Below are positions 59,181 to 61,842 of a stretch of 64,000 nt of DNA, in pieces (position 1 is the first letter of the stretch; every line of letters begins with the position of its first letter). Source of the DNA: a virus. The notes beneath the pieces are model-generated. The model worked only from the letters and a program-made list of their open reading frames with translations, was not told the DNA's origin and searched no databases. The translations under genes were made by a program, and so were the position numbers. The stretch is taken from positions 1 through 64,000 of the IMG/VR virus record IMGVR_UViG_3300032331_002826; one strand, 5' to 3'.

Positions 59181-59571
59181 TGGTGGACGTGGCGGGATTC
59201 GAACCCGCGTCTTCAAAAATATATTCTACATCAGACTACACGCTTATGAATTTTTTGACCGCACAACAACCATAATCTAAAATCCCAAACTTATGATTGT
59301 TTATGTTTGTAAGTTTCAACAACATATCCAAACTATATGTCATCAAGCCTGATAGAGTACACCCAACACAATTATCAGACATCGTTGTATTGGATGTGCA
59401 GCAACTTAAGCTGCGAGTAGTGCAACGTCTTCTCTCTTAGAAGTGAAGTCGTAGCTGATTACTTTGCTTTTCTTAGCATTTATTTTTTGAACAGATGATT
59501 AAAGAGGCCGACCGTTCATCCTCTGCGTGCCTAACATGAACTAATCTTTGAATCGAGACCAGTACACGCCC
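59181..59571 (-). ncRNA. ssrA: tmRNA
   Basis: 5' GGGCGUG pairs with 3' CACGUCC-A-CCA with G3:U70; T-arm GCGGG-UUCGAAU-CCCGC; resume context AUAAAU-GCU; tag AKKSKVISYDFTSKREDVALLAA-stop (59477..59406). Confidence 0.93.
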
Positions 59572-59597: not shown

Positions 59598-60227
59598 TCA
59601 GATCGATTTAGGATCGTATCCGAATTTCATAAATGCATCATGATAGAAATGAGCAACAATGTCAATCTCTTTTTGAGTATAATAACTCTGCCAATCACTT
59701 AACGTTGGATTGTTTTTATTCCTTCTCAGAATAAACTCGGGTCCAGAACCTCCACTTTCAGTGTAACTATTTTGAACAAGTTGATTTTGAATTATAGATT
59801 GAACATTCGGATCTTTTAAATCCACAAAAGGAATTTTGGCAAGATCTTCCATATAATTTTCAATCCTAACATAGATGTCTGGTTGTTTTTTGTATGTTAG
59901 AATTGGAGAAAATTCACCCATTCCTGTCATACCTGATACCCATTCTGGAAAAGTCTGACGTATGATGATATTATTGTTTTCATCGATGTCAAAATTCCTC
60001 CAATGCCAAACAGATAAAACGTGTGAATATGGATTACGTACATTACATATCACCAAATAATCGTCACACCCCGCCGGTATTCCTATCTCATGAGTTCCTT
60101 GCTCTTTGATGTGACATTGACTTGCAGCGTTGTAAAAATCGTAGTATTCCAAAATGTAAGACATCGATCTACTGGCTGTACGAGGCGGCAACCACCACAC
60201 CGCTTTATGTTTATGATTTACAAGCAT
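59598..60227 (-). CDS. Sulfotransferase family 2-like protein
   Basis: WLPPRTASRS (5'-PSB-like), VRNPYS..LS (3'-PB), RIEN, YHDAFMKFGY. Confidence 0.75.
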   Translation of the reverse strand: MLVNHKHKAVWWLPPRTASRSMSYILEYYDFYNAASQCHIKEQGTHEIGIPAGCDDYLVICNVRNPYSHVLSVWHWRNFDIDENNNIIIRQTFPEWVSGMTGMGEFSPILTYKKQPDIYVRIENYMEDLAKIPFVDLKDPNVQSIIQNQLVQNSYTESGGSGPEFILRRNKNNPTLSDWQSYYTQKEIDIVAHFYHDAFMKFGYDPKSI

Positions 60228-60470: not shown

Positions 60471-60500
60471 ATTTAATATCACCAATACATAGTGATAAAA

Positions 60501-60603
60501 AATTGAAAAAAACACAAACCGTGCTATTATACGCTAAAAAGCAATGCGGCACATGCGCCCAAACCCTTACGGAATCCTCCTATCGGGTGTTTGTGTTTTC
60601 AAT
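60501..60603 (-). ncRNA. Unassigned structured RNA (about 100 nt, three-way junction)
   Basis: Closing helix AAAACACAAAC/GUUUGUGUUUU; inner CCCGA..GUAA-loop..UUGGG and GUGC/GCAC arms. Confidence 0.45.
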
Positions 60604-60759
60604 TGGATGACCGTGACTTGCGAATATATGGGGATTTCACGAAAAACGTTCCTAGTATTGAACAGGACATGATCCACTGTTCACCAGTCTATCCCACCAA
60701 CTTCAGTCTCTTATACCCTCCCACGGGTATCGTGCATTAATTCTATACACCAACGATCA
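60604..60759 (-). ncRNA. tRNA-like RNA with about 85-nt structured insertion in place of the T-loop
   Basis: 7-bp acceptor UGAUCGU/ACGGUCA + U-CCA; D-arm GUGUA/UGCAC; AUACCC-GUGGGA-GGGUAU arm; GACU/AGUC stem enclosing nested hairpins. Confidence 0.6.
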
Positions 60760-60764
60760 AATTT

Positions 60765-61121
60765 TTAATCTCCTTTTTGGAGTCGAATACTATCTTCATC
60801 AAAATGTTGTGTACTGAATTCAAACAACTCAGTGTCTTCAATTGCATACATTTGATGTTTCAGTCCAATTGGAATATGAAAATGGTCACCCTTGTTTAAT
60901 GCAACAGATGTAGACTTATTAATATCATCGTGCCAACCATAATACAATATAATCTTTCCACTTTGGACATAAAATGTTTCATCCTTAATTTTGTGATAGT
61001 GCCAACTACACTTTCGATCCTTCACAAGATAAAGAATCTTGCCACAATACTTTTCATTGTTGACAATCCACTTTTCAAATCCCCATCCCTTCGGTACAAT
61101 ATGTAATCTTTGGTAATCCAT
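60765..61121 (-). CDS. Cupin (mannose-6-phosphate isomerase type II C-terminal-like)
   Basis: PKGWGFEKWI, SWHYHKIKDETFYV, IPIGLKH, EFST. Confidence 0.8.
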   Translation of the reverse strand: MDYQRLHIVPKGWGFEKWIVNNEKYCGKILYLVKDRKCSWHYHKIKDETFYVQSGKIILYYGWHDDINKSTSVALNKGDHFHIPIGLKHQMYAIEDTELFEFSTQHFDEDSIRLQKGD

Positions 61122-61128
61122 AAATTAA

Positions 61129-61416
61129 TTTGACACAGCCGTAGCCGATGTTCTGTTCTATTCCTACATTTATCTCAATATCTCTATTGGTCATCCATTA
61201 AAGATGACTGCTCCAACCTTGTCCTGATAACGTGCAGCACTACACTCGGACACTTTAGGATTACTGCTAATTTGTGGTGTTAACGAGGGGGACTATCACA
61301 ATGAAGTGGTCTTAGCCGATTTGGACTCGGTTTACAATGCCCTCTCCCAATCATCTGCTGTGCAGCATCGAACTTCCTCTAGGATATTATCCCAGCGTAG
61401 GATCGCTTATGTCAAA
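61129..61416 (-). ncRNA. rnpB: RNase P RNA (short, type A-like)
   Basis: P1 UUUGACAUA-A-GC/GCUGUGUCAAA; P2 UCCUAC/GUAGGA; P3 CUGGGAU/AUCCUAG; CR-I GAGGAAGUUCGAUG pairs (P4, bulged U) with CR-V ACAGAACAUCGGCUA; CR-IV AGAUAAAUG; GAGA-capped P18. Confidence 0.85.
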
Positions 61417-61438
61417 ATTTCAGTCAGTGTTTGATAAA

Positions 61439-61657
61439 CTATTGCTTTGCAAACAAATGCAGATTCTCTGCTTTCAACGTATCCATTTGTTTTTCTATGA
61501 CTTTGCGTTTTGTAACGTCATTTGTTTTCTCCCATTTTACCACAAGCGAACTGTATTGCTTGCGATACTTTTCAATGGTGAGTTTTTTGGTTACGTTGTC
61601 TGCGCCAAATGCATTCAATGCAAGTGTCAATACGATTGTTGCTAGAATTGTTTTCAT
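61439..61657 (-). CDS. Small secreted protein (signal peptide)
   Basis: MKTILATIVLTLALNAFG-AD...; the longer track start overlaps tRNA-Pro. Confidence 0.65.
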   Translation of the reverse strand: MKTILATIVLTLALNAFGADNVTKKLTIEKYRKQYSSLVVKWEKTNDVTKRKVIEKQMDTLKAENLHLFAKQ

Positions 61658-61684
61658 ATGTTCAACAATACATATTGATGAAAG

Positions 61685-61760
61685 TGGTCGGAGTGGAGAA
61701 TTTCGCAATCTCAACCTCCTGTCTCCAAAACAGGCCGTCTACTTTTGACATTACACTCCG
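61685..61760 (-). tRNA. tRNA-Pro(TGG), atypical (A18, G55, A37)
   Basis: CGGAGUG/CACUCCG-A-CCA; CCUGU-UUUGGAG-ACAGG; T-loop UGCGAAA. Confidence 0.85.
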
Positions 61761-61768
61761 ATAAAAAT

Positions 61769-61842
61769 TGGCAGGGGATAAGGGAATCGAACCCCTACAA
61801 AGGGCTTCAAAGGCCCCCGCACTACCATTATGCAAATCCCCA
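61769..61842 (-). tRNA. tRNA-Gln(TTG)
   Basis: Cloverleaf, CU-UUG-AA, U1-U72 mismatch, G73-CCA. Confidence 0.92.

Follow-up and report, generated by a model that had tools for sequence, protein, structure and literature searches.

A conserved tRNA-shaped RNA with a folded domain in place of the T-loop, encoded in phage tRNA arrays

Results

Some phage tRNA arrays encode, among their ordinary tRNAs, a tRNA-shaped RNA in which a conserved folded domain stands where the T-loop should be. We read one such gene, for an RNA of 156 nt, on the minus strand at positions 60604-60759 of a 64,000-nucleotide stretch of viral DNA (the window; IMG/VR record IMGVR_UViG_3300032331_002826, positions 1 to 64,000), and it occurs as a single copy in the 74-kb record. 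The RNA is a member of a family that is real, conserved and undescribed. Very probably the family consists of non-decoding RNAs that are derived from tRNA and processed like tRNA. The explanation we favour, and regard as reasonably probable, is that the product is a stable tRNA mimic, processed by RNase P, which acts through its acceptor end and a rebuilt elbow together with a tRNA-handling partner.

Architecture of the RNA

The features of the window copy are collected in Table 1. In addition to these, U8 is present, the variable region is 4 nt long, and the D-loop, which has no GG, reads AUAGAAUUANN. The element is followed by the trailer AAUUG, like the adjacent tRNAs. The GACU and AGUC strands, between which a tRNA has a 7-nt T-loop, are separated by 86 nt in the window copy, and these comprise a conserved domain of ~50 nt and a variable hairpin of 34 nt. 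Across the family, the domain enclosed by the 4-bp T-like stem measures about 50-110 nt.

Much of this outline had been proposed in a preliminary description made from the window sequence. The acceptor stem UGAUCGU/ACGGUCA with its U-CCA, the neighbour-type trailer and the D arm are all present on the minus strand. The 6-bp stem with the 6-nt loop GUGGGA, which had been called non-decoding, was confirmed, and loops of 5-9 nt were observed in the family. The GACU/AGUC T-stem is likewise present, and it covaries in the 70 homologues described below. Two helices of the proposed nested hairpin, CUGGU/ACUAG and UGAACAG/CUGUUCA, stood; the third, GGGAU/AUCCC, was one position off, the relatives supporting GUGGG/CCCAU. 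A structured insertion of ~85 nt in place of the T-loop had also been proposed. The replacement of the T-loop is borne out, and the idea of a single insert is not, the variable hairpin being absent or replaced in relatives.

Table 1. Features of the tRNA-shaped RNA in the window. The RNA position p equals 60760 minus the window coordinate.
Feature	Window positions	Strand	Pairing or evidence
Whole tRNA-shaped RNA	60604..60759	-	R1: 123 bits, E 1.5e-24, full model length
Acceptor stem, 5' strand UGAUCGU (p1-7)	60753..60759	-	pairs with 60608-60614
Acceptor stem, 3' strand ACGGUCA (p146-152)	60608..60614	-	sequence and covariation
Discriminator U73 and encoded CCA	60604..60607	-	sequence and tails of 67 distinct variants
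D arm: GUGU/GCAC (10-13/22-25), 11-nt loop with invariant AGAAU, without GG	60732..60750	-	
Anticodon-position hairpin AUACCC-GUGGGA-GGGUAU, 6-bp stem, 6-nt loop, non-decoding	60713..60730	-	
T-like stem, 5' strand GACU (p52-55)	60705..60708	-	pairs with 60615-60618
T-like stem, 3' strand AGUC (p142-145), abuts acceptor 3' strand	60615..60618	-	
Conserved 5' junction GAAGUUG	60698..60704	-	near-invariant in alignments A2 and A4
P3 helix, 5' strand GUGGG (p63-67)	60693..60697	-	pairs with 60628-60632
P3 helix, 3' strand CCCAU (p128-132)	60628..60632	-	covariation
Conserved junction AUAGAC	60687..60692	-	AGA invariant in A2
Variable hairpin Pv (UGGU-GAACAG...CUGUUC-ACUA), 34 nt in window	60653..60686	-	
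Pentamer 1 AGGAA, putatively T-loop-like	60649..60653	-	family counts
Pentamer 2 UGAAA, putatively T-loop-like, inside conserved GUGAAAUC	60635..60639	-	
Conserved 3' junction AUAUUCGCA	60619..60627	-	AUUCG invariant in A2

A family of homologues

Exact patterns drawn from the conserved blocks were scanned against IMG/VR, JGI metagenomes and the GTDB genome set, and the loci fetched were then searched with our own covariance model, R1. This yielded 70 distinct homologues, each the only one at its locus, which measure 122-177 nt and score 100-146 bits with R1; ordinary tRNAs of odd appearance score ~19 bits against the same model. Members were mostly found in freshwater or lake samples, with a few from marine ones. 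In the genome collection, two small contigs carry the RNA, one binned with a Flavobacterium MAG and the other belonging to a gammaproteobacterial assembly; we do not take them as evidence for a host.

The window phage, uncultured and T4-like, has a T4-type major capsid protein, for which the nearest named relatives, at ~55% identity, are those of Microcystis phage Mel-JY01 and the Flavobacterium 'immuto' phages. Among cultured or complete relatives chosen by similarity of this protein, Microcystis phage Mel-JY01, Rhodothermus phage RM378 and Flavobacterium phage immuto gave no R1 match, and the uncultured 484-kb phage LR756508 gave only a 16.8-bit match in which the D-loop is absent and which looks like chance. 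A nucleotide search of a phage collection returned only a 39-nt match, to the flank of the element. When a 453-aa glycosyltransferase was used as an anchor, one near-identical contig was found and nothing else.

Neither Rfam 15 (gathering threshold, E<=10) nor ARAGORN made a call at the position of the element, and ARAGORN recognised 0/67 intact members as tRNA. No literature description and no Rfam family was found for these RNAs, and the literature on phage RNase P RNA yielded nothing relevant. The lack of a clean call had been anticipated in the preliminary description, and its view of an undescribed, non-decoding tRNA mimic agrees with a conserved family that has covarying stems, no Rfam 15 match and no describing paper found.

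Comparative support for the helices

The single-sequence fold of the window RNA was not better than that of shuffled sequences (z = -0.92), and the structural case therefore rests on comparison. In the alignment of the 70 distinct homologues, which was fitted to the model, standard pairs occupy 95.6% of pair cells, as against 88.9 +/- 0.3% after shuffling (0/500 as high) and 22-55% in slid controls. Cells changed on both sides numbered 122 in that alignment, compared with 27 +/- 3.8 in shuffles (0/500), and compensatory change was seen in 11 of the 27 pairs, spread over five helices. From a MAFFT alignment of 24 short members, made independently of the model, RNAalifold recovered four helices: acceptor, anticodon-position, T-like (with 3 bp) and P3.

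The acceptor stem is paired in 99.4% of its cells among the 70 members. Pairs 5:68 (C-G/U-G/U-A) and 6:67 (A-U/G-C) change in a compensatory manner, while one-sided changes at 4:69 and 7:66 keep the pairing. Four of the five modelled pairs of the anticodon-position stem covary, as do pairs 50:64 (A-U/G-C) and 51:63 (C-G/G-C/U-G) of the T-like stem. P3 is paired in 100% of cells, with covariation in two pairs (C-G/U-A and A-U/G-C); the relatives have ACGAG/CUCGU, ACGGG/CCCGU or GCGAG/CUCGU for the GUGGG/CCCAU of the window. Among hairpins of the window type, the base of Pv covaries between the window copy and two other loci (L008 and L079). The D stem is the least secure of the helices. Its pair 12:23 changes in a compensatory manner, being G-C in 45 members and A-U in 5, but is unpaired in the remaining 20, members of a clade with GUGA...AAAC; in these 20 of 70, G.A and A.A replace two pairs, and RNAalifold favours another pairing there.

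Two further candidate pairings were rejected. A mini-hairpin between the two pentamers is paired in 78.6% of cells and shows zero compensatory change. The GAA/UUC junction pairing of the single-sequence fold is contradicted by the uncompensated variants GACGUUG and CUAAAG. The GAAGUUG junction itself shows one-sided changes (GACGUUG, GAAAUUG) without compensation, and Watson-Crick pairing of this segment is therefore unlikely.

Conserved and variable parts

Conservation was observed to be concentrated at the acceptor end and at the elbow. U1:A72, G2:C71, A3:U70, U73 and the D-loop AGAAU are near-invariant, as are the junctions GAAGUUG, UAGAC, (U/A)GGAAC, GUGAAAUC and UAUAUUCG. The elbow domain is more conserved than the remainder of the RNA, and within its core of roughly 50 nt about 36 conserved nucleotides are not Watson-Crick paired in the model, which suggests that the core is compactly folded in three dimensions or offers a surface for binding. 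The first pentamer is UGGAA in 56 variants, AGGAA in 6, AAGAA in 4 and CGGAA in 1; the second is near-invariably UGAAA, with UGAGA in one locus only (L023), and the two lie 5-10 nt apart. The AUUC of the 3' junction UAUAUUCG is complementary to the GAAU of the D-loop, with which it may pair; both sides are almost without variation.

Since members were recruited through patterns in conserved blocks, recruitment bias was checked. A search whose pattern lay mainly in the 5' half of the domain, and which fixed only GUGA.AU of the 3' block, recovered just two further members. Their 3' block is almost unchanged, with UUCA for UUCG in one (L171) and one G-U pair in the other. The block is thus kept in independently found members, so that its invariance is not only an artefact of recruitment.

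The least conserved part of the RNA is the anticodon-position hairpin, of which ~28 versions occur; the stem ranges from 3 to 6 bp and the loop from 5 to 9 nt. Only 10 of 65 distinct variants combine 5 bp in the stem with 7 nt in the loop, and these resemble the loops of Leu-UAG or Pro-UGG tRNAs. With such stems and loops, and with no conserved anticodon, the family does not decode; codon reading is moreover precluded by the strongly conserved folded domain that takes the place of the T-loop. A second variable site lies between UAGAC and GGAAC, where members have either a linker of 3-7 nt or unrelated hairpins of 12, 28, 34 or ~60 nt.

Setting in the tRNA array, ends and transcripts

The RNA island of the window lies on the minus strand and comprises 13 tRNAs and a tmRNA by ARAGORN, one further tRNA detected by Rfam only, and an RNase P-like RNA. 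Searches of the phage record with RF00230 (T-box) and RF00010 (RNase P) gave no match. In all loci with enough flank, the element lies in a tRNA array and on the tRNA strand. The commonest upstream neighbour is tRNA-Gln: in about 9 loci a tRNA, usually Gln-UUG, ends 3-4 nt upstream, and in many a tRNA-Ala follows 8-54 nt downstream. A tmRNA was also frequently seen near the element in the homologue loci.

In 65 of 67 members a U stands at position -1. Past the CCA, the trailers (AUUUU, AUUUA or AUUUG) are like those of the neighbouring tRNAs. The tails of the 67 distinct variants are UCCA (56), UUUA (8), UACA (2) and UCCG (1). An encoded CCA is thus lost in 11 of 67, though most adjacent tRNAs keep theirs, and beside CCA-ending members it is encoded by 275 of 294 tRNAs; no clear co-variation was seen between the CCA of the element and that of its neighbours. 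The 11 variants without an encoded CCA weaken the case for an essential 3'-end chemistry.

Contigs of two metatranscriptome studies cover 60613-60829 and 60697-60965 and are continuous with the upstream cupin gene; they indicate presence only and could include DNA. Such contigs give no RNA ends or levels, and stretches they do not cover (e.g. 59606-60211 and 61424-61827) were not interpreted. Clustering of the ORFs within 3 kb of the loci revealed no conserved protein partner, and no transferase or synthetase gene as a conserved neighbour. The largest clusters consisted of ORFs resembling homing endonucleases or of spurious frames that run across conserved RNA genes. When the conserved single-stranded segments were compared with the other RNAs of the island, only isolated complementary 7-8-mers were found.

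Discussion

Alternative explanations

Could the element be a cis-acting processing module and nothing else? It would then be tRNA-shaped punctuation for RNase P and the 3' nucleases, freeing for example the 3' end of the RNase P-like RNA, and the RNA released would be functionless. The tRNA-like leaders and trailers are in keeping with this. Several relatives have the RNase P-like RNA directly upstream of the element; in two loci (L013 and L099) it ends 10-12 nt upstream, and 29 of 67 loci have, within 3 kb, a conserved stretch that overlaps the RNase P-like region. In many other loci, however, the element merely lies between two tRNAs. An ordinary tRNA, or an acceptor/T minihelix, would do the same job, and a pure processing signal is for this reason unlikely; it would also leave the ~36 near-invariant unpaired nucleotides of the elbow and the invariant AGAAU of the D-loop unexplained.

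The acceptor end invites a second explanation, a non-ribosomal aminoacyl carrier, which would be charged at its CCA, kept off EF-Tu and the ribosome by the rebuilt T region, and able to pass its amino acid on to a transferase. Without the normal T-loop, the RNA would be expected to stay out of translation. The invariant U1:A72, G2:C71 and A3:U70, the U73 found in all variants read, and the CCA encoded in 56 of 67 variants would suit such a carrier. We could nevertheless recognise no identity set that would suit an anticodon-independent synthetase: the G3:U70 of AlaRS is missing, as is the purine at position 73 expected of a Ser- or Leu-type tRNA. The tRNAs with U73 (Gly and Cys) also need their anticodons, and these are absent from the element. 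Taken together with the loss of the encoded CCA in the other 11 variants and the lack of a transferase or synthetase gene as a conserved neighbour, this makes the carrier quite improbable.

Among the roles suggested in the preliminary description, beside that of an aminoacylated adaptor, was a decoy for anticodon nucleases. More broadly, the RNA might serve as decoy or sponge against a tRNA-attacking defence factor of the host, either an anticodon nuclease or an enzyme that acts on the acceptor end. Phage tRNA arrays are a plausible site for counter-defence RNAs. The fast-varying loop at the anticodon position can be read as the trace of an arms race, and one clade has a loop (AUUAGGA or AUUGGGA) like that of tRNA-Leu(UAG) or tRNA-Pro(UGG). 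In most members, however, the hairpin, with its stem of 3-6 bp and its 5-9 nt loop, imitates no real anticodon arm. Conservation resides in the elbow domain and the acceptor end and not in the supposed bait; the bait being the variable part, an anticodon-nuclease decoy is disfavoured. Factors that check the elbow would not be fooled either, since the elbow is no longer tRNA-like. We therefore consider a decoy of any of these kinds a poor candidate.

An oversized decoding tRNA, either with the domain spliced out as an intron or used intact (for example as Leu-UAG or Pro-UGG in the 177-nt clade), is very improbable for the family and essentially excluded for the window copy: 10 of 65 variants do combine a 5-bp stem and a 7-nt loop with U33 and G37, and Lak megaphages have been reported to carry tRNA genes with unexplained introns (PMC6784885), but in 7 members, each subjected to 195 in-silico excisions around the domain, ARAGORN called none of the products and no ordinary tRNA was restored, Rfam showed neither a group I nor any other intron family at the element, the loop has the wrong size in the window copy and in most members, the D-loop lacks GG, there is no T-loop, and the domain is conserved above the rest of the RNA, which is the opposite of what is expected of an intron.

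A tRNA mimic with a rebuilt elbow

We return to the favoured explanation, a stable tRNA mimic. RNase P would cut its 5' end out of a polycistronic precursor, and the tRNA 3'-end machinery would trim the other side to U73-CCA. The RNA would then fold into an L whose corner has been rebuilt, with (U/A)GGAA, UGAAA and the UUCG-containing junction facing the D-loop AGAAU in place of the normal D-loop/T-loop corner. It may thus play the part of a tRNA look-alike by means of its conserved acceptor end and rebuilt corner, and not by codon reading; such an RNA would be expected to bind a tRNA-handling partner, be it a phage or host protein or an RNA, and to stay outside translation. This particular mode of action, through acceptor end and elbow, is put forward tentatively, and we hold it for possible at best. 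The conserved unpaired core, the T-loop-like pentamers and the complementarity of GAAU and AUUC together suggest, at the level of motifs, a rebuilt elbow on an L-shaped body, and in such an elbow the pentamers may be T-loops.

With regard to origin, the D stem GUGU/GCAC, the run from U8 to A14 (UGGUGUA) and the pairs U1:A72 and G2:C71 recur in one type of tRNA-Gln(UUG) of these phage arrays. It would be reasonable to propose, as far as sequence likeness allows, that the element arose from a duplicated tRNA-Gln of which the T-loop was replaced.

In a bolder version, the tRNA body would carry a genuine double T-loop platform at its corner, and the element would belong to a phage-private circuit of tRNA processing, along with the phage's own reduced RNase P-like RNA and its many tRNAs with odd elbows. 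We consider this combination improbable. Were the double T-loop reading true, the element might bind elbows in trans, act as a specificity partner, or serve as a substrate or regulator adapted to an enzyme of the phage and not of the host.

Significance

Ever since species 1 and 2 of T4, phage tRNA clusters have been known to hold extra RNAs that are tRNA-like. What the present family adds is a new architecture, in which the T-loop of a tRNA has been exchanged for a near-invariant folded domain. The family is carried by abundant lake phages, and its gene is at present overlooked by annotation pipelines. An island with an RNase P-like RNA, a tmRNA and 13-14 tRNAs suggests phages that come equipped with a complete set of RNA-based tools for handling tRNAs. 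With 70 natural variants, clear covariation and a minimal form of 122 nt, the RNA is tractable for structural and biochemical work; the anticodon-position hairpin and the variable-hairpin site tolerate many sequences, which should make them useful for probes and tagged versions.

Comparison with known systems

The first standard of comparison is the canonical tRNA (RF00005), for instance the tRNA-Gln(UUG) of the same arrays. The element shares with it the 7-bp acceptor stem, U8, the 4-bp GUGU/GCAC D stem, an anticodon-position hairpin, a further stem that stacks on the acceptor, and N73-CCA; leader and trailer are the same in both. Unlike a canonical tRNA, it has no T-loop (UUCRANY with G53-C61), no G18G19 and no conserved 7-nt anticodon loop, and it carries a domain of roughly 50 nt at the elbow.

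RNase P, T-boxes and the ribosomal L1 stalk grip the elbows of tRNAs with a double T-loop platform. The consensus for such modules consists of pentamers with conserved AG..A and UG..A (PMC3664808). Like these modules, the element has two close, purine-rich pentamers on one strand with a short hairpin or linker between them (AGGAA and UGAAA in the window), a likeness at the level of motifs only. As against the consensus, most members have UGGAA as the first pentamer, and the four with AAGAA are without the conserved G; the covariation gives no sign that the two pentamers interdigitate. Known double T-loop modules moreover bind the elbow of another RNA, whereas that of the element would sit at its own.

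As in tmRNA (RF00023), a tRNA-like acceptor end is combined with an expanded body, and both RNAs occur in the same island, where the genuine tmRNA lies at 59181-59571. The element, for its part, lacks the tag reading frame, the G3:U70 pair and the ring of pseudoknots. Its pair 3:70 is A-U in 70 of 70 members, and neither ARAGORN nor Rfam called a tmRNA at the element, in line with the preliminary description, which had set it apart from tmRNA for want of a tag frame and of G3:U70. The same description had distinguished it from the YrlA-type Y RNAs (RF02553), and this also holds. Those RNAs are non-decoding, have a tRNA-like module and occur in phages too (PMC4201824). The element resembles them in being non-decoding and in having such a module. 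In YrlA, however, the ends of the RNA form the Ro-binding stem and the T arm is kept, whereas in the element the ends form the acceptor stem. RF02553 gave no match on the element at E<=10, and the sole YrlA match in the region falls on the neighbouring tRNA-Ala. The 'enigmatic tRNA introns' of Lak megaphages (PMC6784885) are a further case of oversized phage tRNA genes; they are described as introns in otherwise recognisable tRNAs, unlike the element.

Two RNA genes of phage T4, rnaC (species 1, 139 nt) and rnaD (species 2, 119 nt), are annotated beside the T4 tRNA genes in AF158101. No sequence similarity to the element was seen when they were compared by eye. Like them, the element is an extra small RNA gene in a T4-type tRNA cluster, on the tRNA strand, tRNA-related and non-decoding, and tRNA-like ends are found here as in RNAs of the rnaC/rnaD kind. 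The rebuilding has gone in opposite directions: T4 rnaC keeps a canonical T arm (GGGUUCGAAUCCC) and has its D and anticodon region rebuilt, whereas the element keeps the D and anticodon-position arms and has its T-loop rebuilt. The T4 rnaC and rnaD RNAs are thus the closest known kind and belong to a different family.

RNA genes and reading frames around the tRNA-shaped RNA

The features accompanying the tRNA-shaped RNA, in the window and in the loci of relatives that carry its homologues (L-numbers, each with local coordinates), are collected in the table below.

Features of the window and of related loci
Feature	Location	Strand	Description
RNase P-like RNA	window 61129-61416	minus	upstream of the tRNA-shaped RNA; motifs GAGGAAGUUCGAUG and ACAGAACAUCGGCU
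Cupin-domain ORF	window 60765-61121	minus	118 aa; Pfam Cupin_2
Stretch of ~130 nt	window 60471-60603	minus	directly 3' of the tRNA-shaped RNA
tRNA-Pro(UGG)-like gene	window 61688-61760	minus	Rfam 36.8 bits
Conserved non-coding block GUGAGGGACACGAUACACCCCUGUAUGUCUGACCCGGACGAAUCUGAUCCAGAUAGGAUAGGGUUGAA	L002:900-1125		homologous stretch in L004, L023, L073 and L086
Long forms of the tRNA-shaped RNA	L039:10696-10869 and related		171-176 nt; variable hairpin ~60 nt
tRNA-sized sequences, CCA-ended	L020:620-693; L115:134-207		odd T-loops AGCAUUA, AGCGUUA
ORFs of ~290-370 aa	L041:5731-6834; L021:1386-2261; L074:873-1787		Cys-rich motifs at the N-terminus

The two motifs of the RNase P-like RNA are able to pair into a P4-like helix that contains a U bulge, and the Rfam model RF00010 made no call on this RNA. 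A strong promoter-like site was observed at 61415-61386 (TTGACA and GATAAT, 18 nt apart), and positions 61143-61360 are covered by metatranscriptome contigs. In the window the cupin ORF lies between this RNA and the tRNA-shaped RNA, an order shared with L079 and L109, and contigs from RNA libraries run continuously from the ORF into the tRNA-shaped RNA. In other relatives the RNase P-like RNA adjoins the tRNA-shaped RNA, the end of the one and the start of the other being 10-12 nt apart in L013 and L099. In one clade (L002, L004, L023, L073 and L086) the conserved non-coding block was found directly upstream of the tRNA-shaped RNA.

On the 3' side, the ~130-nt stretch is closed by a long-range stem (AAAACACAAAC / GUUUGUGUUUU) with a U run after it, and its first part, ACACAAACACCCG, was also found behind the tRNA-shaped RNA in L013, L020, L023 and L061. 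This stretch may be a terminator or an additional structured RNA. The Cys-rich ORFs are repeatedly located within tRNA arrays, and look like putative homing endonucleases.

Unusual T-loops

In the clade with the long forms of the tRNA-shaped RNA, a T-loop-like sequence, GUUCGAAAG, is conserved at the tip of the variable hairpin. The tRNA-Pro(UGG)-like gene, on which ARAGORN made no call, has the T-loop UGCGAAA in place of UUC... Neither of the two tRNA-sized sequences was called by ARAGORN, and each scored ~19 bits against R1, our covariance model of the tRNA-shaped RNA family (members of which score 100-146 bits). Several tRNAs of these phages apparently have non-standard elbows.
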